Virus record (IMG/VR): IMGVR_UViG_3300027996_000032
Location: 1 to 62,757 of that record
Source of the DNA: a virus
Lineage: Duplodnaviria > Caudoviricetes
Reading direction: 5' to 3' (one strand)
Length of the DNA stretch: 62,757 bases
Part shown: positions 3,221 through 49,967 of the stretch, piece after piece
How the letters are laid out: each line of letters opens with the position of its first letter
How positions within the stretch are numbered: position 1 is the stretch's first letter
The notes under the pieces: generated by a model
Seen by the model: only the letters and a program-made list of their open reading frames with translations
What the model was told of the DNA's origin: nothing
Databases searched by the model: none
Position numbers and translations under genes: made by a program

Positions 3221-3736
3221 ATGTTCGCTCAAGCGGTGATGGCCGACCTCGTGCCTTTTGAACCCCTGACCTGCCCTGACAGCCCGTTTAGCGCTATCTC
3301 TGATGACCCGTCCGCGGTACGTGTGGAGTACGCGGAGGGGGCGCCAATGACCGAGCAGTGGCCTGACATCGTTGAAAGGATCGTGTCTCGTGCCCTCAGT
3401 AGTGTCGAAACACGGCTCAAAACGATCGACAAGACAGCCTCGAACAACGCAGGGGCCATCGCGGGCATTCGTGAGGGGCTCGCCGGTTGGCGTGGCGCCG
3501 ACCTGGGTGGCAAGATCGACAAGCTGGAGTCGAGGCTAGAAGCCGAGGTCGAGAAACGAACCGACGCGCTAGCAGCCGAGGTCGGGGCGCGAACCGAAGC
3601 TCTCAAGACCATGGGCGAGAAAGTGGCGAAGCTCGAAGCCGAGCGCCACCGGGCAATCGGCGCATTCTTCATCTTGTCACTGGTCCCCACCGGCCTGACT
3701 GTCGCGACAGCCCTCGGGTGGTTCACACCCGCCTGA
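3221..3736 (+). CDS. coiled-coil protein with C-terminal TM helix (holin/XhlA-like candidate); start may be 3348
   Basis: heptad coiled coil followed by hydrophobic AIGAFFILSLVPTGLTVATALGWF. Confidence 0.5.
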   Translation: MFAQAVMADLVPFEPLTCPDSPFSAISDDPSAVRVEYAEGAPMTEQWPDIVERIVSRALSSVETRLKTIDKTASNNAGAIAGIREGLAGWRGADLGGKIDKLESRLEAEVEKRTDALAAEVGARTEALKTMGEKVAKLEAERHRAIGAFFILSLVPTGLTVATALGWFTPA

Positions 3737-3737
3737 G

Positions 3738-4103
3738 CTAGGGCTCGCCAGACATCATGCGGCGCGCGACCTCCGCCATCCCGCCACCGCTCGCAAGGGC
3801 TGCGACCGCATACGCCGCCGTCTTCCAGTCCACGCGCTCCAGAATGCCCGTCGCCAGGGCTACCTTCTGCTCCTCCGCCTTCGTCTCGGCAGCCTGCTCG
3901 CGCTCCACGACCTCGAGCAGGGTCACGACACGTCGCAACACCTCGCCAGTCTCGCCGAGACGCTCGAACAGCACGCGTTCCGGCGTGATGCTGTCCAGGT
4001 GGGCGCGCAGGGCCCCCACCGCGGCGCGCAGTGCGTCCGGAAGCTCCGACTGCTCCAGGAGCCGTACAGCGGCCTCAGCGCGTGCCAGATCTTCGCGGGT
4101 CAC
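3738..4103 (-). CDS. coiled-coil protein with C-terminal hydrophobic segment
   Basis: GTG start overlapping the upstream TGA; helical and charged, ends WKTAAYAVAALASGGG. Confidence 0.5.
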   Translation of the reverse strand: MTREDLARAEAAVRLLEQSELPDALRAAVGALRAHLDSITPERVLFERLGETGEVLRRVVTLLEVVEREQAAETKAEEQKVALATGILERVDWKTAAYAVAALASGGGMAEVARRMMSGEP

Positions 4104-40443: not shown

Positions 40444-43400
40444 CTACGATGCCCGGCGTTTCACAACGAGGCGAGGACGGCGGCGGCGGGCTGCTGCGCG
40501 TAGCGCCTTGGCCAGCACATCGGTGCGCTGCATGGCCTTCACGAGATCCCCAACGGCCTCGTGGATGTGCGCGCGCTCGGCATCCTGCGGGTAGGGCTGC
40601 TCGGTGCGGGTCGGGTCCTTCATCCGGGTACCGTAGACAAGGTAGGTGCTCTGCCTCTTCTGCTTGTGGAGCGTGTCTTCCACGTATGACTCGAAGGCGC
40701 GAGCGAACATCTCGTGCGGCGTCGCCCAGTACCCCTTTCCGAGTGCTTCGGCGTGCTGTAGGTACGTGGTCTTGTTCGCGGTAGGTAGTGCCTTGATCTT
40801 GGCGTTGAACGTCTTCACTTCTTCGTTGTATGCGTCCGACGCGGCGCTCCTTTCCTTCCCCTTCAGGCGCGCAGCCTTCGACCTGACCAACCGCAGGCGT
40901 TGTCGCTCCGCGTTCAGGTCTGTATCCGCGGCTGCTCGCTCCTTCCGAAGCTCGGCCTGGCGCTCTGGTGTCGGGGTCGTGATCCGATGCATCACCTCGC
41001 GGAACGCTCTCGACACATCTGGGTGCAGCTTGTCCGCTGACGACCTGGCGGACACGAACGGCGCGCTTGCCTTCTGTCCTGGCCGCCCTGGCGTCATGGC
41101 GGAAGGATCATCCACGAGCTGGTGGTCGAAGAAGTGCGCCCATTCGTGGGCGAGACTGCCCGCACCTTTGGTGTGGGTGAGGTTGATCACCTGCGTGTCG
41201 GGCTCGTAGTGAGCCGCCGCGGCCCCCCCTTGCTTGCCGCCACGAGCGCCGATCGTGATGGCCAACACACCACCGTGAGATATCTGCCTCGGGTGCATCC
41301 CGAGGACATCCGCCAGGTCGGTCAGGGCCTCGTGAGAGCGTGCAAGGTGCTCGTCACGGCTGGCCTGGTCCACCCAATCGCCCCAGCGGACAGCGCGCAG
41401 CCCAAACAGATCGGTGAGCTTTTCGCCGGACGGGTTCGACACGTCGACCTTTGGCCCCCCAACACGACGGTTCTCGGTGGTGGCTCGGGTCCATTTGGTG
41501 CCCTTGCGCCGCGTCTTCTTCTTCGAGTCGAGCATGGACGACCAATCGTCCTCTTTCTCGATCTTCCTTGCATGGTAGCGGTCCTTTTCCCAGAACGCAG
41601 AGTTCGCGGTCCGCTCGGTTCTGGCTCGGTGGTCGGCACCGTTGATCACGCTGGCCAGGCGTCGGGCTGACCGGCGTCCACGCCGGTCAAAGCCAGCCTC
41701 ACCGCTGAGCGCGTCCATGTAGCGATACCAGACGTTCTCGGACTTCGGGATCGGCTTGGTGAGACGGTAGCCGCCGCCGCCCCGCACCACCTCCGACGAG
41801 TACCCGGCCGCCTTCAGCATCCCGAACGAGATCTGTTCGCGACGGTCGAGGGCGTCGATCTTCACGTTGAGTCGCTTCACCTCGTCCCAGTCCGGCACGG
41901 CCTTTGTTCTTTCAGCCTTGAGGGCCTGGAGCTGCTTCAGCTCCGCTCGTGTGTTCAGGTTGATCTGCGTGTAGCCGCCACCGCTCGGAGCACCCTTGTG
42001 CTCCTTCACCTCGGCCCACAGCTCTTGTGCCGAGAGGGTCTTTTCCTCGACCATGTGGCCGCTCGCCATGAGCTTCCAGTCCCGAACGAATGAGATCACC
42101 TTCTCCATGGTGTCGCACGCCGCGAGTTCCTTCTGCAGCCAGGTGGCGCCGGCCACGTAGTCGCGGCGATAGTCGGCGCCATCCTTCGGACCCACAGCCA
42201 CAGCCGCCAGGAGCTTCTTCTTGAGCCATGCGGCACCAGGTGTCGCTCCCGAATCCCTCTCCTCCTCGGCGCTGAACTTCTCGAACACGTTCTTCTTGAG
42301 TGCGTGCTTTCTTGCTGTCTTGGCGCCACGCGATTCGAGCTCGCCAATGTTCGCCTCGTTGATGCGCGTTTTGGCCCTCCACTCGTCTTTTCGGTCGCCT
42401 GGCACGTAGACGCCCACATCCACGTGGTCGCCGGCCTTCGCGGGTGTCCGCGACCGCTTCGGCGACTTCTTGGGGGCTGGCGCCAGTTGACCGTCCGGCG
42501 TCACAGCTGGCGCCAAAGCGGCGGAGCCTGTGGCCGGCTTCGGCTTCTTCGCCTCCGCTGCCTTCAGCTCAAGCTCGTAGCGCATCCCAACCATGGCGGG
42601 GCCGACCGACATCTTCGGGCGCCTGCCTCTCTTGTCCGGCATGTAGCCCGGGAGATACTCACCATCGCCGCCCGACAGGGCCGCCCACAACCCGGACGCC
42701 CTGCGAAGGGCCTCGCGGCCATCGTCTGCGACCTGGCCCGTGCTACCCATGCTCGCGGCATGGATGAGCAGCAAGCGCTCGATCTCACTGAGGTGCTCCT
42801 CCTCGGACTTTGGTCCCTCGGAAGTTTCCGCCGCACCCTCGGAAGTTTCCGCCGCACTTTCGGGGTCGACCTCGCCCCGCTTCTTCTTCGCCTTGTCGCG
42901 AAACTCGGCCGCGGCATCCTTGTCGCCGCGCTTCTCGGCCATGTCACCGTGCAGATCGAGGTAGGCCGCCGCCGTCTTCTTCCGCCCGATGTCGTCCTCG
43001 GACAGCTTCGACCCCTGCGCCTCGGGTGCCGGCTCTGGCGTAGGTTCGGGTGCCGGCTCTGGTGCTGGTGTGGGCTCCACAGCCGCCGGAGTCACGGCCG
43101 GCTGCTCGGGCTCGGGCTCCACCACCTGGTGGCCCTTGGCGGTGCGCTCCCCCTCCGTCACCTGAGCCACACCCGTCTTGGTACGACGCAGATGGCGCTT
43201 CACTTTGTAGCGCTGCCCCGCACCTTCGCGTCGCTTGTGCTTCTCGGCTCGCTTCGCGGCGCGCCGGTTGAGCTCCGTTTGCACCACACCGTGGTCGGCG
43301 TGGTTGGGCCCCACCTTCTCCTGGTGGGCTCGCAGCTCTTCGGCGCGCATGCGGAAGACGGAGCGACCAGTCAGCGGTGGCTGTGGCGGCGGCTTCTCGG

Positions 43401-43569
43401 GCTGCAGTGTCGTCGCTGGCTTCTCTGGCGCCCTGGTCGGCGGCGCCTCCTTCTTCTTCGGCTTCCGGCGAGCCTTCGCCTTCTTCTTCTGTGCGGGTGT
43501 CGGGGCACCGAACATGCTCAACTGGGCTTTGAGCAGCTGCAGCCTGGCCGCGACGACGTAACGGCGCAT
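40444..43569 (-). CDS. polyvalent protein with LPD5-like and LPD1 (zincin-like HExxH) domains
   Basis: DVGVYVPGDRKDEW (LPD5-like); VRWGDWV...EALTDLADVLG...GARG...AAAHYEP...INLT...GAGSLAHEWAHFFD...YWATPHEMFARAFESYV...YPQ (LPD1). Confidence 0.8.
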   Translation of the reverse strand: MRRYVVAARLQLLKAQLSMFGAPTPAQKKKAKARRKPKKKEAPPTRAPEKPATTLQPEKPPPQPPLTGRSVFRMRAEELRAHQEKVGPNHADHGVVQTELNRRAAKRAEKHKRREGAGQRYKVKRHLRRTKTGVAQVTEGERTAKGHQVVEPEPEQPAVTPAAVEPTPAPEPAPEPTPEPAPEAQGSKLSEDDIGRKKTAAAYLDLHGDMAEKRGDKDAAAEFRDKAKKKRGEVDPESAAETSEGAAETSEGPKSEEEHLSEIERLLLIHAASMGSTGQVADDGREALRRASGLWAALSGGDGEYLPGYMPDKRGRRPKMSVGPAMVGMRYELELKAAEAKKPKPATGSAALAPAVTPDGQLAPAPKKSPKRSRTPAKAGDHVDVGVYVPGDRKDEWRAKTRINEANIGELESRGAKTARKHALKKNVFEKFSAEEERDSGATPGAAWLKKKLLAAVAVGPKDGADYRRDYVAGATWLQKELAACDTMEKVISFVRDWKLMASGHMVEEKTLSAQELWAEVKEHKGAPSGGGYTQINLNTRAELKQLQALKAERTKAVPDWDEVKRLNVKIDALDRREQISFGMLKAAGYSSEVVRGGGGYRLTKPIPKSENVWYRYMDALSGEAGFDRRGRRSARRLASVINGADHRARTERTANSAFWEKDRYHARKIEKEDDWSSMLDSKKKTRRKGTKWTRATTENRRVGGPKVDVSNPSGEKLTDLFGLRAVRWGDWVDQASRDEHLARSHEALTDLADVLGMHPRQISHGGVLAITIGARGGKQGGAAAAHYEPDTQVINLTHTKGAGSLAHEWAHFFDHQLVDDPSAMTPGRPGQKASAPFVSARSSADKLHPDVSRAFREVMHRITTPTPERQAELRKERAAADTDLNAERQRLRLVRSKAARLKGKERSAASDAYNEEVKTFNAKIKALPTANKTTYLQHAEALGKGYWATPHEMFARAFESYVEDTLHKQKRQSTYLVYGTRMKDPTRTEQPYPQDAERAHIHEAVGDLVKAMQRTDVLAKALRAAARRRRPRLVVKRRAS
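42815..42856. repeat. 21-bp tandem duplication (AAETSEG x2) in a linker of the LPD1 protein
   Basis: CCCTCGGAAGTTTCCGCCGCA twice. Confidence 0.9.
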
Positions 43570-43622
43570 CTCTAGCCCCCTATTCGATACCGGACGGATA
43601 GCGCACGCCGCGGCGCGACGCT

Positions 43623-45653
43623 CTATGCCGCTCGCATGTTCTCACGGCACCGACGAACAACGGGCCTTGCTTTCCACGCCTTGGACAACGGCAGCCCATC
43701 CGGCTTGTCGAGCACGATCCGAATCGCCCGCACGCCGGTGCCGGACCTCCGCCACGCCTTGGGGTCGATCATGCGGTCGCTCTCTCCACGATGCTCGGAC
43801 ACAAAGCGCTGAAACGCCTGGTGAGCCTTTGAGCTGTTGTGCATCGCACCAGCGCCCACGATGGCCACCAGCCGCCCGCCTGGCTTCAGGTTGGTGTGGA
43901 ACGCCTGGAGTACGTGGGCCATGTCCTGACCCTTCTCGAAGGGCGGGTTCATCACCACACGATCGAACCGCCGCGACACCCCCAGCCCGTCCGCCTGCAC
44001 GTTCTGGTAGCCCTTCTCACCCAGTACCTTCCGGAGGGTCGGCGAGATCTCCGCCACGTGGATCTCGGCGTGGGCTGGCAGCATGTCGGCAATGCCACCA
44101 GTGCCGGCCGACGGCTCCAGCACGGACATCCCGGGCTGGATGTCCGCTGACTCCACCATCAGCGCCGCCTCGGGGTAGGGCGTCGGGAAGTAGCCGGCGA
44201 TCATCTTGTGGGCGGGATCCTTCCACCGCTTCGCCTCGAGCTCCTCGGCGTAGGCCATGCGGTCGTCGGCGTTGTCGGTGCGCGAGCGGTCCGGAGCCGG
44301 CCACCGCTCCACCTTCACCCGCTTGCCTGGCTCGGTCCGCTCCAGGAAGGAGCGCGTTCGCTCGACCACGCCATCGTAGTCGCTCGCTGTCTTCCATCCG
44401 ATCTCGTGCTTCGCGGTCCACGTCTTCGCGGACGCCCACCCGGGATCGCGCTTGGTGATCTTCTTGAAGGCCAGCTCAGCGGCGCGCAGCTTCGCGGCGT
44501 CGGCATGGCTCGGCATTCGGATGTGGTCGGCACCAGAGCTGCCTCGGATGGCGTACTTGGAGCGCATGCGTCCGATCAGGCGATTGTATGCGCCGATCGC
44601 CTTCTCCACCTTCTTCTCGTCGAGCCCCCGCCGCTTGTCGCTGTATGAGGTGTCGGCTGTCCGCAGGTAGGTGGTGGTGTCACGGTGCCCCATCGACACC
44701 CGCTCGCGCCTCTCCGTGGCTCGGTCCTGTGCCGCGACGGCGTTCATGGCCGCGGACTTCGCCTCAGGGCTACTCACCACCCGCTCCTCGAAGCGCGTGG
44801 GGCGATACCCCTGATCGATAGCCTCGGCGAACTGCTGCAGCCGCTGGCCCCACAGCACCTTGGCGCCGGCAGACGCCCGACGGTGCGCGCCCTCGCTCGC
44901 TCGCTTGTGCGTGTTCTCGGTGCCGTAGAATGTCGCGGATTCGGTGTTCCGCTCCACCAGGGCGGCGCCCCGCTTCCGGATCTTCGCCGCGAGCTTCGTG
45001 GCCTCCGCATCACCAAGCCGCTGCTCGTGTAGCGGCTCCTGGGTTTCCCTGGCGTGGTGCTCCTGGGCCTTCCGTACCGCCTTCTTGCGCGCCTGGGCTT
45101 CCGTCTTCGCCCCACCGTAGTGCTCGCCGTGCACCCCCTTCGGGGTCCGCATCGTGTCGCGGTGCACCATCGTTGCGTAGGCGTCCGGCAGGCCCGCGCG
45201 GCGCGTCGCCGACAACGCAGCCCGAGCAGACTTCGCCTGAGCGCCGGTCTGGTCGTTGCGGCCAGCCCTGGACATCTTGCGCTTCGCCACGGCATCCGAG
45301 ATGTCTGGCCCAGATGGCGCGCGCACCACCGCCCTCTGCCCGAGCTTCTTCGCCTTCTTCTCGGAACGTCGGCGCGTGCGACGCTCGATCTCCGCCTGCA
45401 GAACGTTGTGGTCGGGGTGGTCTTCCCCCACCTTGCGCTGGTGCGCCACCATGGCGGCACGCCCCATGCGGAACGCGTCCGAAGAGGTCAGCGTGGCCGC
45501 GGTCTTCCGGGTCGAGTGATGCTCTGGCACCGACACCACACCCGCCTTCGTCCGTCGCAGGTGCGCCTTGACCTTGACCTTCTGTGTGGGGGCGCCAAAT
45601 AGGCTCATCTGCGACTTGAGCATCGCGACGAGACCACGCCACTCCCCCATCAT
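43623..45653 (-). CDS. N6-adenine DNA methyltransferase with long basic N-terminal region (DarB-like MTase domain)
   Basis: GYFPTP, VLEPSAGTG, VVMNPPF, LKPGGRLVAI. Confidence 0.85.
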   Translation of the reverse strand: MMGEWRGLVAMLKSQMSLFGAPTQKVKVKAHLRRTKAGVVSVPEHHSTRKTAATLTSSDAFRMGRAAMVAHQRKVGEDHPDHNVLQAEIERRTRRRSEKKAKKLGQRAVVRAPSGPDISDAVAKRKMSRAGRNDQTGAQAKSARAALSATRRAGLPDAYATMVHRDTMRTPKGVHGEHYGGAKTEAQARKKAVRKAQEHHARETQEPLHEQRLGDAEATKLAAKIRKRGAALVERNTESATFYGTENTHKRASEGAHRRASAGAKVLWGQRLQQFAEAIDQGYRPTRFEERVVSSPEAKSAAMNAVAAQDRATERRERVSMGHRDTTTYLRTADTSYSDKRRGLDEKKVEKAIGAYNRLIGRMRSKYAIRGSSGADHIRMPSHADAAKLRAAELAFKKITKRDPGWASAKTWTAKHEIGWKTASDYDGVVERTRSFLERTEPGKRVKVERWPAPDRSRTDNADDRMAYAEELEAKRWKDPAHKMIAGYFPTPYPEAALMVESADIQPGMSVLEPSAGTGGIADMLPAHAEIHVAEISPTLRKVLGEKGYQNVQADGLGVSRRFDRVVMNPPFEKGQDMAHVLQAFHTNLKPGGRLVAIVGAGAMHNSSKAHQAFQRFVSEHRGESDRMIDPKAWRRSGTGVRAIRIVLDKPDGLPLSKAWKARPVVRRCRENMRAA

Positions 45654-47737
45654 TGGAGGCCACGCGTGCGACGGATTCGCTCCATGACGCTCATCAGAGA
45701 GCGTTCGCTCTTCGAGCGCTCCCCGTAGGGCGGCACCACCTCGGGACCATCACCCTTCGCGAGCTTGCGGTACTCCTCGCTTCGGGAGTCCTCGCCGTCT
45801 TTGCGCGTGAACTCCTCGACAATGATCGGATCTATGTACTTGTCAAGAGCGGTCGTCACCGTCAGCTCCCATTCTTTGTTGGGTGGATGCTCGGCCTTCG
45901 GCAGGACCTTGTGCGCAGTCCTCCCGAGTTCCGCCTGATACCGCTTCCGGTCCGCGGTCCCATGGAAGCCCGCCACGTCGGCACCGAAGAGGGCGCCGCC
46001 GTGCTTCTCAACCAGCATTCTATCAGCCTTCTCGTCCGTTTTCACGAAGTGAGAGCGGCTCTTGCCGACCTTGTGCCCGAGCGCTTCCGCAGCCACTGTC
46101 GCGGCCGCTGTGACCCGATCCCCAACCTTCTGCGGGGCACCAGCCTTCGCGAGAGCATCCATCTCGGCAACGAAGATCCGGTTCGCGTGGAAGGTCCGGA
46201 AGTCCTTGATCGTCCCCCCCGTGTGCGAACGCACGTACGTGTTGAGACGGCTGGCGCTCCCCTCGAAGACGCGGGCATCGGGTGGGGGCCCGAGCAGCGG
46301 GGCGATGACCTTGGCGAGCGCAGCATCCTCCACGCTCTTCACGTGTGGCACTGACGCCTTCCCAACGTACGTCAGGATGACCCGATCACCATCGACGCTC
46401 ACCTGTCCTCGCGTGAGGGTCGTCACACCCCTTACATCGAGCTTCGCAGACTTCTCGTTGCCGGCACGGATCAGGGTGCTGTCCACGAGCACAGCCATCG
46501 CCGCAAGATGCGAGCCCCTGGCGAGGTCGGCGATGAACGTCTGGCGCGCACTGTCCAGCGACAGCCCAAACGCGTACATCTTCGCGAACTTCTTCGCGGC
46601 CTGGGCCTTGAGAAAGTCCTCGTGGTAGCCGTAGGTTTTGCGGCTGGTGGTGGGCGACACCCAGCGCAGGCTCCAGTTGTCGGAGGCTCCGCCGCGGGTC
46701 GCGGCGACGCCGACCGGTGGGTACTTGTCCAGGCCGGGCATGTCCGCCCGTAGCTTCGCGGCTGCAGCTTTGGCGTCGGCAATAGGTTGATTCGGCGCGA
46801 CCTTCCGTGTGGCTTGGTGTTGGGGCACCGACACCACGCCCGTCTTCGTGCGGCGAAGGTGGCGCTTCACCGTGACCTTCTGCTCGCCGAACAGCCCGGC
46901 CTGCGCCTTCCGCAGCTCCTTGGGGAGTGCAGCCCACACCCGGTCCGGCTTGTCGAGCCGCTTCGAGCGCGACGACCGCTTGCGCAGGTACGCGGCGAGC
47001 TCGGCGACAGGCCATGCTGTGAGGCCACCATCGAAGCCTGGTTTCGTGTACTGCTTCAGATACGCTCGTCTCGCCGCCGCCGCGGTCCGGTAGCCCAGCA
47101 TGACCTTGTCTTCGTCGAAGACCTGGGTGCCCGGAACCTTCTGGTGCACGACGTAGGCGGTAGGTGCTGATCCATCCTCCCCGACGTAGACATCCACTGG
47201 ATCACCATCGACACCGAGAGTCCGACAGAACTCGCCGTAGTGCGCATGCATCTTGATGATCCATTTCTTCCCGTCTGGATCAAACCCCGTGCGCGTCGAA
47301 CCCTTGCGGTTCTCGACCTTGATCTCGAGCCCCTGGAAGTCGATCACCCCCACGAAGGGGTACTCGCGGCGGTTCGGTTTCGGTGGTGGGCCCACCACCA
47401 CCGCCGATTCAGCGAGCGCCCGCAGCCGCTTTGCCTCCGCGGTGGGTCCGCTGCCCTTCGTCAGCTTGGTGCGACGCAGGCGACGCGCGACGTAGCGCTG
47501 CGAAGGCCGCACGCCCTTCTCCATTTTGCGGAACAGCCCCTCATACGGGACGCCGCCGGTCTTGAATGTGCGCACCAGTTCTGCCGTCTGCGCCCTGGCT
47601 TTCCGGAGACTCGTCACGAGCATGTGGTAGGGCAGCGGGAGCCCTGTACCCTCGATGGTGAGGACACCGACCCGACGCGGCCCACGCCGCCCCCATGCGA
47701 AGGTGAGACCACCGGCTGTCCATGTCGTCGCGACCAT
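45650..47737 (-). CDS. fusion of an inorganic-pyrophosphatase-like domain and DNA topoisomerase IB
   Basis: IKVENRKGSTRTG...HYG...GVDGDPVDVYVG...FDEDKVMLGY (PPase-like); LIRAGNE, YVGK, KDFRTFHAN, LGH, KYIDP (TopIB R-K-R-H-Y pentad). Confidence 0.85.
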   Translation of the reverse strand: MVATTWTAGGLTFAWGRRGPRRVGVLTIEGTGLPLPYHMLVTSLRKARAQTAELVRTFKTGGVPYEGLFRKMEKGVRPSQRYVARRLRRTKLTKGSGPTAEAKRLRALAESAVVVGPPPKPNRREYPFVGVIDFQGLEIKVENRKGSTRTGFDPDGKKWIIKMHAHYGEFCRTLGVDGDPVDVYVGEDGSAPTAYVVHQKVPGTQVFDEDKVMLGYRTAAAARRAYLKQYTKPGFDGGLTAWPVAELAAYLRKRSSRSKRLDKPDRVWAALPKELRKAQAGLFGEQKVTVKRHLRRTKTGVVSVPQHQATRKVAPNQPIADAKAAAAKLRADMPGLDKYPPVGVAATRGGASDNWSLRWVSPTTSRKTYGYHEDFLKAQAAKKFAKMYAFGLSLDSARQTFIADLARGSHLAAMAVLVDSTLIRAGNEKSAKLDVRGVTTLTRGQVSVDGDRVILTYVGKASVPHVKSVEDAALAKVIAPLLGPPPDARVFEGSASRLNTYVRSHTGGTIKDFRTFHANRIFVAEMDALAKAGAPQKVGDRVTAAATVAAEALGHKVGKSRSHFVKTDEKADRMLVEKHGGALFGADVAGFHGTADRKRYQAELGRTAHKVLPKAEHPPNKEWELTVTTALDKYIDPIIVEEFTRKDGEDSRSEEYRKLAKGDGPEVVPPYGERSKSERSLMSVMERIRRTRGLQ

Positions 47738-47785
47738 TTGGGCCTCCGTCGTTCAGCTGCCGGGATTCTAACGTGCGGCGCACCC

Positions 47786-47814
47786 TTGACGCGTGCGGCC
47801 ATCGCGTGCAGGAT
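47786..47814 (+). promoter_or_regulatory. putative sigma70-type promoter for the RNA island
   Basis: TTGACG-N17-CAGGAT, upstream of a structured leader and the tRNA-like genes. Confidence 0.5.
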
Positions 47815-47900
47815 CCCCTCATGTACAACCGCACCCATTGACAGCACGACCCCGCACGGCGGGGACGAGAGCCATCAGGCGGCCCGGCTTGTGCATATCC

Positions 47901-47975
47901 ACCCACGTAGTTCAGTTGGCAGAACACCCGGTGTAATGAACCGGGAGGTCGAGGGTTCGATCCCCTCCGCGGGTA
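47901..47975 (+). tRNA. tRNA-like gene with expanded anticodon arm (9-nt loop TGTAATGAA; identity undetermined)
   Basis: acceptor ACCCACG/CGCGGGT (one A-C mismatch), D arm GTTC/GAAC, AC stem CCCGG/CCGGG, T arm GAGGG-TTCGATC-CCCTC; no encoded CCA. Confidence 0.7.
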
Positions 47976-47978
47976 TTG

Positions 47979-48051
47979 GGGCGAGTAGCTCAGCGGTAGA
48001 GCGTCGGGCCTTCGGGTCCGGAGGTGGCTGGGTCAGCACCAGCCTCGCCCA
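47979..48051 (+). ncRNA. anticodon-less tRNA-like RNA (anticodon loop replaced by a cUUCGg tetraloop)
   Basis: acceptor GGGCGAG/CTCGCCC, D arm GCTC-AGCGGTA-GAGC, TCGGGCC-TTCG-GGTCCGG, T arm GCTGG-GTCAGCA-CCAGC. Confidence 0.7.
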
Positions 48052-48072
48052 TACCCTTTCCAGAGGTGAGCG

Positions 48073-48369
48073 ATGAAGCTCTATCTGATCGTGAAGACCG
48101 CCCTGGGGGCAGGTCTTCGGTGTGCGCAGGCCATCCACGCCTTCCGCGCCTTCGTTGGCGAGTACCCGCACATTGAGACGTTCTGGCACCTCGAGCACAA
48201 CAACATCGTGGTGCTGCGCCACGAGGATCCCGAGTCGCTCGCCGCGTTGCTCCGGATGCATGGCCTCCGCTTATCCCTCTTCCGGGAACCCGACCTCGAC
48301 AACGAAGTCACGGCGCTGTGCGTCGAGCCCGCCGGCGCCCGCTACCTGTCGACACTTCCCCTCGCGTGA
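48073..48369 (+). CDS. Pth2-like peptidyl-tRNA hydrolase
   Basis: KLYLIV...L.AG..CAQAIHA...IVVL...FREPDLDNEVTALCVEP...LS.LPL; GAGGTG RBS. Confidence 0.8.
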   Translation: MKLYLIVKTALGAGLRCAQAIHAFRAFVGEYPHIETFWHLEHNNIVVLRHEDPESLAALLRMHGLRLSLFREPDLDNEVTALCVEPAGARYLSTLPLA

Positions 48370-48397
48370 CGACCACAAGGCTATCTTCCCCATGGTG

Positions 48398-48472
48398 GGG
48401 CCTGTAGCTCAGTGGTAGAGCACTCGTCTGATAAGTGAAAGGTCGGCCGTTCGAACCGGCCCAGGCCCACCA
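48398..48472 (+). tRNA. tRNA-Ile(GAT)
   Basis: GGGCCTG/CAGGCCC-ACCA, loop CTGATAA, T loop TTCGAAC; weak anticodon stem (one C-A, two G-U). Confidence 0.85.
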
Positions 48473-48480
48473 CCTCGAAA

Positions 48481-48890
48481 GGGCTGTCCGATCTTGCGCC
48501 GACTGGCGTCAATCGTGCGGACGGTGGGACTACCCCGGGAGGCGACAAGCCACCGTCGCTGTGGATCCCCGTTGAGGGCCCAGGCCAGCGGGCGGCTGGT
48601 GTCGGGAACAACCTCCGCGGGATGATCACGCAGCCGGGACCATGGAGAGCTAACGAGACACCTCGATCGGCTGTGCCAAACTGCCATTGGATGACCCAGC
48701 GTCCATAGGCGTCGTTGCAGCGTCCGGAGAGGGTGGCGAGTGCTCCGTGCTGGACCCGCGACGATCGGATAGGGTCCGACAGAGCTGGCTGGGCCAGCAC
48801 CGCCCATCCCCTTTGCGGGGATTGAAACGCGACGCGCGCAGTTATCTGCACGCTTAAACAGGCCAGAGGGTTCAAACCCTCTGGCCTGTT
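48481..48890 (+). ncRNA. candidate ~410-nt highly structured ncRNA
   Basis: no credible ORF; many nested helices and two possible pseudoknots (see findings). Confidence 0.6.
48857..48890. terminator. perfect 14-bp hairpin between convergent units, probable terminator or 3' end of the ncRNA
   Basis: AACAGGCCAGAGGG-TTCAAA-CCCTCTGGCCTGTT. Confidence 0.65.
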
Positions 48891-48899
48891 GCGCTGGTG

Positions 48900-49088
48900 C
48901 TACCTGTCGACGCGTGACGAACCGAACTCCACACTCACCGACTCCACCTTGAACGACAACATGGGGTGCGTCTCGATCATCGCCTTGATGCGCTCCTCCG
49001 CCCGTAGTTCTCGTATTCCGGGTAGCCCTGAAACCTCACCGTCGCTGCGAGTTGCTTTGGTTCTTCCACCTCGTTCCTCCTGCGCCAT
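48900..49088 (-). CDS. small hypothetical protein
   Basis: 62-aa ORF after the TopIB-like gene. Confidence 0.35.
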   Translation of the reverse strand: MAQEERGGRTKATRSDGEVSGLPGIRELRAEERIKAMIETHPMLSFKVESVSVEFGSSRVDR

Positions 49089-49106
49089 GTCACCACACCA
49101 TAACCG

Positions 49107-49967
49107 CTAGGGCTGGTGGTGGTCATCGAACGGGTCGGAGCGCTTCACAGCATCCAGGTGCCCACCAAAGTCGTCGTGTGACTCCATGCTCTTGGGGACG
49201 ACCCCATACCTGCCGTGAGCCTTTCGCGTGGTGGCGTCCACATCGTCGAGCTCGACGCCAGACTTGAAGGCCGCGCGCTCGGCGTGTCTCTCCGCCTGCT
49301 GCTTCGTCTTCGGGCGCCCCAGCTCGGCGACCTCTTTGGACCATCGCCGCGTGGCGTGGTGCCCCCTGACACCATCCATGCCGGCGCCGAGGTGGTCCTT
49401 CAGGTATTCCTCCACGTGGTCGGCCTCGACGGCCCGTGGTGAGCCGTCGTGCCCCGCCCCTTCGAAGACCTGCCCCACCTCGCGACCTTCGAGCGCCGCC
49501 CGAAGCCATGCCGCAAGGCGGGCGTCCTCGACTTCGTGGTGGGGCTGCGACGCCGCACGCACCGACACCTTGGTGCCGTCCACCTTGATCTCGTTGGCCG
49601 TGATGTGGTGGATGTGGCGGCCCGCATACTGGGTGAGCAGCGCACATGCAGCGCGCGCAGCTATGGGGCTCGTCGCGCCGAGGCGTAGATCTCGGTACGC
49701 ATGGGCGCGGAACTTCGGGATCTCCGCGTGGTGCCTCCGGAGCTCCGCGAACCCCGCACCCGCGTCGCTGTGTTCCTTCGCCTTCGCTCGCCCCTCGTCG
49801 TGAGAGGGCCCACCGCTTCCGGAGTGCTCGACGTAGTGCCCGTGATGGACGCGATGGGTCGCGCCCTCGTCGTCCTGGACTGTGACACCGTGGCGGCCTG
49901 GCTTGTGGACCAGCCGCCCGGTGTGTGGTTTCCCCGTCTGCGGGTGTCGGAACTGGACCCGCTTCAC
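49107..49967 (-). CDS. SH3/KOW-like N-terminus plus degenerate topoisomerase IB-like catalytic domain
   Basis: IPKFRAHAYRDL...ACALL...IKVDGTKVSV...EVEDARLAAWL...QVFE...VEEYLK...VRGHHAT matches the TopIB core by eye; no RxGNE or YIDP. Confidence 0.55.
   Translation of the reverse strand: MKRVQFRHPQTGKPHTGRLVHKPGRHGVTVQDDEGATHRVHHGHYVEHSGSGGPSHDEGRAKAKEHSDAGAGFAELRRHHAEIPKFRAHAYRDLRLGATSPIAARAACALLTQYAGRHIHHITANEIKVDGTKVSVRAASQPHHEVEDARLAAWLRAALEGREVGQVFEGAGHDGSPRAVEADHVEEYLKDHLGAGMDGVRGHHATRRWSKEVAELGRPKTKQQAERHAERAAFKSGVELDDVDATTRKAHGRYGVVPKSMESHDDFGGHLDAVKRSDPFDDHHQP

Follow-up and report, generated by a model that had tools for sequence, protein, structure and literature searches.

The window analysed here, a 62,757-bp linear viral contig of IMG/VR (record IMGVR_UViG_3300027996_000032) with a G + C content of 66% and an estimated completeness of 69%, carries a unit of about 1.1 kb on the + strand at positions 47786-48890, hereafter called the island. 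In it, a sigma-70-type promoter is followed by a mini-ORF (a very short open reading frame), a tRNA gene with an enlarged anticodon loop (tRNA A), a tRNA-like element without an anticodon (tRNA-like B) and a gene for a PTH2-fold protein, referred to below as the hydrolase gene. A map of third-position G + C content placed almost every gene between 7 and 61 kb on the - strand, with the island as the only + strand unit of this region; an earlier sequence-only reading of the window had described it as embedded in a minus-strand late region. We consider it likely that the island is a self-contained recoding cassette, whose own tRNA reads a four-base codon and thereby gates the PTH2-like gene. The features on which this interpretation is built are as follows.

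47786..47814, + strand: promoter, with -35 box TTGACG at 47786-47791, a 17-nt spacer, -10 box CAGGAT at 47809-47814 and 6 nt to the ATG.
47821..47841, + strand: putatively leaderless mini-ORF of 6 codons plus stop (47839-47841), peptide MYNRTH, ending CAT TGA and followed by C.
47836..47839, + strand: proposed quadruplet codon CAUU, formed by the last sense codon and the U of UGA; exact complement of AAUG.
47840..48076, + strand: +1 frame after the quadruplet, 78 codons open through A and B, whose stop TGA (48074-48076) overlaps the ATG at 48073.
47847..47867, + strand: G + C-rich hairpin 6 nt past the mini-ORF stop, a possible shift stimulator.
47901..47975, + strand: tRNA A, folding as a cloverleaf whose anticodon stem has 5 bp and whose anticodon loop has 9 nt (47932-47940), found by ARAGORN and by Rfam (52.5 bits).
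47935-47938, + strand: four-base anticodon AAUG, with U before and A after it (loop U-AAUG-A).
47979..48051, + strand: tRNA-like B, which has the acceptor, D and T arms and, as anticodon arm, a 7-bp stem (48004-48010/48015-48021) capped by UUCG (48011-48014).
48063..48069, + strand: Shine-Dalgarno-like GAGGTGA upstream of the hydrolase ATG, read from the sequence.
48073..48369, + strand: gene for the PTH2-fold protein of 98 aa, with a coding-type third-position G + C of 0.85 and with Pfam, PHROG and fold matches.

Three tRNA-type genes on the + strand of the island pass the gathering score of the Rfam tRNA family (RF00005, 29 bits), among them tRNA A. ARAGORN labels tRNA A as Ile(AAU), a label that fits only with a shifted anticodon stem. 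Alignment of 24 A-type sequences revealed compensatory changes in 19 of 20 base pairs, a 5-bp anticodon stem, an invariant U before the anticodon and, in place of the canonical 7-base loop with a three-base anticodon, a consensus loop of 9 nt (columns 34-42). Across the window's branch of related loci, described below, the A-type tRNAs are called Ile-AAU, Ile-GAU, Leu-AAG, Phe-AAA or Asp-AUC. The first of the two elements that had been taken for tRNA mimics is therefore a tRNA with an expanded anticodon loop, and the second, tRNA-like B, is truly anticodon-less. Two other uses of the loop of tRNA A were considered: the AUG within it was ruled out as a start codon because it is out of frame, and a role of UAAUGA as a mimic of tandem stops was dropped after the four-base complement had emerged. 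Additional expanded-loop tRNAs, with loops AAGC, GAUC and AUAA, were seen in the same cassettes, at L008:1990-2075, L008:2115-2196 and L090 ~625 (oriented).

A pattern search with the single protein found no relatives in IMG/VR. Searching with an alignment of 10 sequences yielded 10 related loci from IMG/VR and 45 from metagenomes; all 55 were scanned with ARAGORN and 51 with Rfam, and two branches resulted. The window's branch consists of 25 loci (the window counted), which have same-strand odd tRNA genes directly upstream of the hydrolase gene. Mini-ORFs of 2-8 codons with the end NNN-TGA-C were present in 23 of these 25 loci; none was found in L021, nor in L022, of which only 142 nt of upstream DNA are available. 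The motif CCATTGACRG, of which each locus has a single + strand copy 240-310 nt 5′ of the ORF, proved to be the end of the mini-ORF (...CAT TGA C), and the stop is TGA followed by C in 23/23 loci.

In all 23 loci having a mini-ORF, a tRNA encoded on the same strand is complementary to the last sense codon and the U of the UGA that follows it, with four Watson-Crick pairs in 20 loci and with three plus a G.U pair at the fourth codon base in the remaining 3 (the tRNA of L019 was taken from the Rfam search of the relatives). Codon and loop covary in five kinds of quadruplet, namely CAUU with AAUG or GAUG (17 loci), GCUU with AAGC (3 loci), and CUUU with AAAG, CGAU with AUCG and GAUU with AAUC (1 locus each). 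At 70% protein identity the 23 matched loci represent 20 lineages. Loci with other A-type loops had no CATTGA motif; the hexamers expected in L010, L017, L025 and L043 were predicted from their loops beforehand (CTTTGA from AAAG, GCTTGA from AAGC), and for L003 an offset reading of the loop, as ATC+G, supplied the hexamer CGATGA. Each hexamer was found to end a promoter-proximal mini-ORF in these five loci. L008, read after the predictions, has a mini-ORF ending GAT TGA and a tRNA loop AAUC, and was confirmed in the later count of matches. As far as comparison between sequences can establish them, the four-base match, its covariation, the leaderless mini-ORF ending in UGA-C and the open +1 frame are established. 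Quadruplet suppressors are recognised by an enlarged loop, four complementary bases and a site needing a +1 shift; the match was found in 23/23 loci and for five quadruplets, and the need for the shift is seen from the fused ORFs and the internal site of the relatives described below. In the window, CATTGAC occurs 6 times against 5.7 expected; the only in-frame CAT-TGA-C in its 62.7 kb is that of the cassette's leader, and the two coding-strand sites in - strand genes are out of frame, as counted by hand from the coordinates.

A generic promoter scan of the island gave 0 hits and did not call TTGACG-17-CAGGAT; yet a layout of -35 box, 16-18 nt, -10 box, 6-9 nt and start codon was found in 22/23 related loci, against 47 of 1833 random ATG/GTG codons in the same DNA, so the sigma-70-type promoter of the earlier reading stands. 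Spacing of this kind between promoter and start codon means a leaderless transcript in Actinobacteria. Judging from this spacing and from what is known of actinobacterial promoters, the transcript probably starts at the mini-ORF and would hence be leaderless. The "structured leader" that had been placed after the promoter folds no better than shuffled sequence (z -0.69) and was abandoned; this stretch is the leaderless mini-ORF, which is coding. Promoter, leader, odd tRNA and Pth2-like gene occur together on the same strand, in the same order of logic, in 23/25 loci of the window's branch. This co-occurrence, together with the recurring B-type element (20 sequences aligned) and the recovery of the module by a protein-blind DNA search, supports the view of the island as a coordinated RNA-plus-protein module, the central proposal of the earlier reading. 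Its parts would be linked by the four-base match of codon and anticodon, which that reading did not anticipate; the purpose that it proposed, ribosome rescue or protection from translation-targeting defences, is speculative. The RNA set originally ascribed to it recurs in part when the neighbourhoods are compared: the promoter, the leader, the odd tRNA and the B-type element are shared, but the tRNA-Ile, the "large RNA" and the terminal hairpin are not.

For the protein-blind search, IMG/VR was scanned for a promoter followed by ATG, 9-18 nt and CATTGAC, and 80 loci were listed of at least 120 stretches. A clean in-frame mini-ORF is present in five of the 80 listed loci, four of which have an AAUG tRNA and a hydrolase gene downstream. 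In the other 75 the motif is no clean in-frame end of a mini-ORF, and 0/75 have an AAUG/GAUG tRNA or a hydrolase gene within 2.6 kb downstream; most of them are ordinary low-G + C genes reading ...ATT GAC.... Two of the four positive loci lie on known contigs (those of L011 and L012) and two, L103 and L090, are new. L103 (51% G + C), found without the use of the protein, has its hydrolase fused to a +1 frame of 185 codons, and in L090 a +1 frame of 311 codons ends about 8 nt before the hydrolase start (counted by hand). L131 has a clean mini-ORF without tRNA or hydrolase; GTAATGA is located a few bases past its CATTGAC, possibly by chance. In most of L066-L145, many low-G + C phage genes, including a family beginning M-K-Y-A-L-I-D, have their start 6 nt past a consensus -10 hexamer and look leaderless.

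Read with CATT as one step, the window encodes an 84-residue product starting at 47821 and stopping at 48074-48076. Across the branch, the +1 frame after the quadruplet was longer than the +2 frame in 19/20 lineages (median 124.5 versus 27 codons; p 1.9e-6), L011, L012 and L024 having been dropped from this comparison as near-duplicates; the +2 frame of the window is open for 31 codons. The hydrolase ORF has no ATG in six loci (L007, L009, L011, L012, L048 and L056), three of which are without any in-frame start and three of which have a GTG inside the T stem. In exactly those six loci, the hydrolase ORF is in frame with the +1 frame and open from it. The stop of the +1 frame overlaps the hydrolase start codon in the window (ATGA) and in L025 (GTGA), ends 6 nt ahead of the start in L017, and falls 29-89 nt within the hydrolase ORF in four loci.

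A further arrangement was found at L022:137-440, L023:1450-1753 and L024:2995-3298, which comprise two distinct sequences from different records and in which CAT-TGA-C lies inside the hydrolase gene itself, the N-terminal 29 residues being encoded in one frame and the remainder in the +1 frame. Reading CATT as one step restores a 100-aa protein that is 56% identical to that of the window over 97 residues, without gaps (E 3e-36). Two AAUG tRNAs accompany the gene in these loci, along with two tRNA-like elements that have no anticodon. On the evidence of the aligned sequences, the hydrolase ORF of these relatives depends on the shift, either because it is fused to the +1 frame or via the internal site.

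The distant branch, 24 metagenome loci (L026-L055), has a leaderless M/V-P-(H/Y/F)-R-TAG in frame with the conserved hydrolase N-terminus, and these loci have no start codon past the TAG. A tRNA(CUA) was located 630-780 nt downstream on the same strand in 16/24 loci; among the eight without it, six end too early, and L037 and L040 have room but none was found. The same TAG leader was present in six contigs of Actinomycetota metagenome-assembled genomes (L060-L065, up to 2.25 Mb), with tRNA(CUA) in 4/6. TAG, the leader quadruplet and the in-gene quadruplet are thus three different ways in which the hydrolase ORF is tied to an adjoining recoding tRNA. The leaders of the Actinomycetota chromosomal module vary as M/V-P-(H/Y/F/N)-R-TAG, and L033/L034 have a normal ATG and tRNA(UUA). 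The neighbours of L031 are ordinary chromosomal genes, and an ORF of about 100 aa without a family match lies between its PTH2-like gene and tRNA(CUA).

The protein of the island had been described as a Pth2-like hydrolase, and it was confirmed as the product of a real gene of a large family with the PTH2 fold. HMMER found 713 representative proteins at E<=0.001, 110 of them at E<=1e-10. For alignment, 65 of the 150 listed HMMER matches, mostly single-domain, were picked by eye and combined with the query to give 66 sequences, 59 of which match the Pfam family PTH2 (PF01981) at E<=0.01 (best 6.5e-12). The window protein matched phrog_1866 with E 1.7e-7, and the family profile matched the solved Pth2 2zv3 among PDB sequences with E 2.3e-9. 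A single-sequence structure model (predicted local distance difference test, pLDDT, 52.9) was discarded for the alignment-based AlphaFold2 (AF2) model, which has a pLDDT of 97.9. Foldseek matched this model to 1q7s (E 3.9e-7, template modelling (TM) score 0.82) and also to 2zv3, 1wn2, 3erj and 1xty; it superposes on Bit1 and archaeal Pth2 with TM ~0.8 and shows the alpha/beta fold of Pth2. Across the 66 sequences, Q19 and D74 are invariant and H22, E72 and T80 are at least 90% conserved; these residues align with the motifs of 2zv3, and the family thus has both the A-Q-x-x-H-A motif and the acidic residue and Thr of the second motif. A hydrolase function on tRNA esters is presumed.

A tblastn search found members of the family, which are annotated as peptidyl-tRNA hydrolase, in 219 GenBank phage records; Mycobacterium phages account for 206 of these. 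In phage Alice, gp150 lies within an array of 20 tRNA genes, with a tRNA(CUA) 250 nt downstream. According to the accessible parts of two papers, PTH2-like genes are present in ~96% of cluster C mycobacteriophage tRNA arrays (PMC5966550) and beside tRNA arrays of jumbo phages (PMC7824862).

tRNA-like B has no anticodon and an atypical T loop, and it scores 41.8 bits against the Rfam tRNA family, above the gathering score. Alignment of 20 B-type sequences revealed compensatory changes in 19/22 pairs and a cloverleaf fold. Their anticodon arms are hairpins of variable length, mostly with a short cap such as UUCG or GNRA, so that a loop able to read a codon is absent and the loss of the anticodon is conserved. 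B may act as a processing helper, a decoy or an enzyme partner. The Rfam search of the island returned tRNAs alone, besides a weak match to YrlA (E 0.071) over a stretch of T and D arms, which was rejected as being explained by the adjacency of these arms. Neither ARAGORN nor Rfam found a tmRNA in the window. In L004, a 125-kb contig, a tmRNA (Rfam 88 bits) and a tRNA-Arg(ACG) are located at 3586-3940 on the - strand, just downstream of the cassette and on the opposite strand to it.

We propose the following mechanism. The sigma-70-type promoter would produce a leaderless transcript, the first 21 bases of which are the mini-ORF ending CAU-UGA-C. tRNA A, encoded 60 nt downstream, would present U-AAUG-A in its enlarged loop and would either read CAUU as a single four-base codon or read CAU and shift +1 at translocation. 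The UGA would be skipped by the ribosome, which would carry on in the +1 frame through tRNA A and B; since the stop codon of this frame, a TGA, overlaps the start ATG of the PTH2-fold gene, ribosomes would be delivered to that gene by termination-reinitiation. The mechanism presumes that tRNA A matures, is aminoacylated and serves on the ribosome, and that the shift is coupled to the hydrolase in the window itself as it appears to be in relatives. Synthesis of the hydrolase would then be set by the activity of tRNA A relative to the route through tRNA-His and RF2, the leader measuring the one against the other. The enzyme would in turn act on ester-linked peptidyl- or aminoacyl- forms of the special tRNAs, or on dropped-off products, and so close a feedback loop.

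A number of observations weigh against this mechanism. Both lysines of the G-K-G-K loop, which are said to be catalytic in Pth2, face non-basic residues in the family (a-G-l versus K-G-K of 2zv3) and are not conserved, and the match of the window protein to PF01981 (17.9 bits, E 0.0038) is below the cut-off of 23. The hydrolase gene of the window has its own Shine-Dalgarno sequence and ATG and could therefore be translated without a shift. The +1 frame ends 58-769 nt ahead of the hydrolase gene in 8/23 loci, which means that coupling is not universal. A hairpin comparable to that of the window is found at a similar distance past the stop in most loci, and the sequence after the shift site nevertheless does not differ from shuffles in folding (mean z -0.4; 5/23 below -1.5). 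CAT followed by T occurs in frame at 11/71 CAT codons of the window's genes and is not depleted; as these 11 sites would be exposed to damage by an efficient four-base reader, its efficiency must be low, context-bound or timed. An enlarged anticodon loop alone is also no proof of four-base pairing, according to the accessible part of one review of the subject (PMC5009743).

Four-base complementarity and covariation would fit direct RNA-RNA pairing equally well, and the loop of tRNA A might pair with the leader RNA off the ribosome to control a terminator or folding, in the manner of a T-box and with no four-base decoding. A hairpin and T run, located about 20-90 nt before the first tRNA-like element and between the mini-ORF and the tRNA genes in L004, L007 and L009-L012, is in keeping with such riboregulation; the same element would also fit transcription attenuation relieved by +1-frame ribosomes. 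The window itself has no such element and no terminator ahead of tRNA A. The matched bases, moreover, are always found at the in-frame end of a leaderless mini-ORF and are followed by GA-C, giving UGA-C; the +1 frame is kept open; seven loci have a startless hydrolase fused to it, and L022-L024 require a shift within the coding sequence. Rfam found no T-box or leader family in the window region (E<=1) or in 51 related loci. On these grounds we regard regulation off the ribosome as unlikely. It is quite improbable, in our view, that the island is an ordinary phage tRNA cluster with a Pth2 gene, in which the tRNAs supply rare codons or replace nuclease-cut host tRNAs and Pth2 recycles dropped peptidyl-tRNA, with no specific link between them. 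PTH2-like genes are known from phage tRNA arrays (PMC5966550, PMC7824862, as far as these are accessible), and the 219 phage records with the same family, such as that of Alice with its 20 tRNA genes, speak for such a cluster; it would not account for loops of 9 nt, for a tRNA-like B that has no anticodon, for the covariation of tRNA loop and mini-ORF end or for the open +1 frame, nor for the startless ORFs and the internal CAT-TGA-C.

The UGA followed by C in 23/23 loci could alternatively reflect a +1 shift of the RF2 type made by host tRNAs alone, the mini-ORF sensing termination at UGA-C and tRNA A being unrelated to it. NNN_UGA_C is a known type of +1 site, shown for antizyme in the accessible part of PMC5009743. 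The sense codon, however, varies (CAU, GCU, CUU, CGA, GAU), and always along with the loop of the co-encoded tRNA. By base-pairing rules, the step from CAU to AUU gives host tRNA-His no +1 re-pairing, and a leaderless mini-ORF of 2-8 codons leaves little or no room for an upstream Shine-Dalgarno-like stimulator, which makes an RF2-type shift very improbable. Assembly errors or decaying pseudogenes might mimic shifts and missing starts, the layout of the window having then arisen by chance; the relatives are indeed metagenomic contigs, and for the window taken alone an open frame of 78 codons is not rare in DNA of 66% G + C (31 codons in the +2 frame). Such an origin has almost no probability when it is considered that the internal site repeats in two different sequences from different records, that fusion is found in five lineages at 70% identity (L007/9/11/12, L048, L056), plus L103, that the protein family is conserved across the junction, and that contigs from four other runs carry the window's island in identical form.

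The recoding cassette may be part of something wider, a proposal that we put forward tentatively and that is, taken as a whole, rather doubtful: a widespread natural recoding homeostat, in which a PTH2-like esterase is made only when the co-encoded recoding tRNA is active and in which the enzyme deacylates or recycles that tRNA. The recoding tRNA would be a four-base reader in phages and an amber/ochre suppressor in the chromosomal branch and in large phages, with B serving as cofactor, competitor or processing aid. The shift would compete with host tRNA plus RF2, and for this reason the cassette would sense the loss of host tRNA, for example to anticodon nucleases, and its reply would be the hydrolase together with replacement tRNAs.

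Four-base decoding is so far known from laboratory suppressor mutants and engineered tRNAs. tRNA A resembles SufD, SufB2, SufJ and engineered quadruplet tRNAs (qtRNAs) in having extra anticodon-loop bases, four of which match a four-base codon, so that the frame would move +1. These known examples reportedly arose from normal tRNAs by spontaneous mutation or by engineering, have loops of 8 nt and were selected for their ability to repair frameshift mutations, whereas tRNA A belongs to a conserved wild-type gene, has a loop of 9 nt and co-evolves with a dedicated site in its own operon. Natural qtRNAs are expected to be very rare, according to the accessible part of PMC9094753. The shift site, a sense codon followed by UGA and C, and the regulation of a downstream product recall prfB and antizyme. 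The +1 site of prfB, the RF2 gene, is of the NNN_UGA_C type and responds to release-factor levels. At known NNN_UGA_C sites it is host tRNAs that slip, antizyme being tied to polyamine levels (PMC5009743, accessible part); in the cassette, in contrast, the shift appears to be the work of a tRNA that is encoded along with the site and pairs with the codon plus U, and the zero-frame product is a leaderless peptide of 2-8 residues.

The PTH2 genes of cluster C mycobacteriophages and jumbo phages belong to the same protein family and likewise adjoin tRNA genes. Published accounts of them report co-location with tRNA arrays and suggest ribosome rescue (PMC5966550, PMC7824862); unlike in the island, a leader mini-ORF, expanded-loop tRNAs, anticodon-less tRNA-likes and recoding-dependent expression are not mentioned in the accessible parts of these accounts. 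With stop-recoding phages the cassette shares a viral tRNA that alters the reading of a stop, and the distant branch uses TAG and tRNA(CUA). Phage recoding known so far reassigns a stop throughout late genes (bioRxiv 10.1101/2021.08.26.457843, accessible part), whereas the cassette's leader is the sole in-frame target in the window and its stop would be bypassed by four-base reading. As in leader-peptide attenuators, actinobacterial leaderless short ORFs and lambda bar minigenes, the outcome at a tiny 5′ ORF would control the downstream genes. Minigenes are classically tied to peptidyl-tRNA drop-off and Pth. Known leader peptides sense charged host tRNA or termination, and we know of no leader that is read by a dedicated tRNA of the same operon. 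Complementarity of a leader element to a tRNA anticodon is also found in the T-box riboswitch, from which the cassette differs in that the match is within a translated mini-ORF, the downstream frame is coding and no T-box is detected by Rfam.

In open-access full text, supplements being outside the scope of the search, we found no description of a naturally occurring tRNA that fits a four-base site of its own leader, of an anticodon-less tRNA-like partner or of recoding-dependent PTH2 genes; a prior description elsewhere, in subscription journals or supplements, may possibly exist. Should the recoding cassette prove true, nature uses quadruplet decoding as a regulatory device, evolved tRNA/site pairs (five quadruplets so far) are ready for genetic-code expansion, and phage PTH2 genes gain a concrete context as partners of recoding tRNAs. 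With the B-type element comes a class of RNAs that are shaped like tRNAs but have no anticodon.

Downstream of the hydrolase gene, the island contains three further features:

48398..48472, + strand: tRNA-Ile(GAU), canonical, found by ARAGORN and by Rfam (65 bits).
48473..48856, + strand: non-coding spacer, formerly the "large RNA", subjected to Rfam, folding and similarity searches.
48857..48890, no strand assigned: perfect 16-bp inverted repeat between convergent units.

The sequence-only reading had included all three in the module. The tRNA-Ile is a canonical gene, and was the sole match of the island to GenBank phages by blastn; ARAGORN found no tRNA at its position in the relatives, and it is accordingly an accessory and not a conserved part of the module. 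For the spacer there was no Rfam match, a folding z of -2.0 (+ strand) or -1.35 (- strand), no similarity in the 55 related loci or in 2 GenBank phage regions, and no Pfam or PHROG match for the ORFs within it; it was rejected as a demonstrated RNA gene. The terminal hairpin is real as a perfect inverted repeat, although it too is not a conserved part of the module. It is probably a two-way terminator ending both convergent units, and was missed by the terminator scan because it has no T run. Partial repeats flank it, one of the 3′ region of B with its trailer (48782-48814) and one of the 3′ end of the hydrolase ORF (48899-48920), arranged in the order of the originals. Taken singly, the repeats of the island score within the range of shuffles and only these two colinear pairs look meaningful; they suggest the remnant of a decayed second B-hydrolase unit.

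Contigs from four further seawater DNA runs matched the island (47600-49100) in long pieces without differences, and its arrangement is therefore stable across samples. The head-type genes of the window include a large terminase gene (phrog_675, E 1e-60) and a portal protein gene. The island had been placed between two TopIB-like genes, which holds well for its left neighbour (45650-47737, - strand), whose product has an InPase domain (E 5e-38) and a topoisomerase-IB core (E 3.5e-18) by Pfam. The right neighbour (49107-49967) has no Pfam or PHROG match, and its similarity to the TopoIB portion of the left gene is weak (29% over 113 residues, E 2e-7). The gene at 43623-45653 (- strand) carries a methyltransferase domain. 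The genes around the island on the - strand are of the "polyvalent protein" kind: from 40444 to 47737, downstream of the head genes, the - strand encodes a row of large multi-domain proteins of this kind, comprising the InPase and TopoIB core protein, a methyltransferase akin to DarB-like and other large PHROG families, and a protein of 1041 aa.

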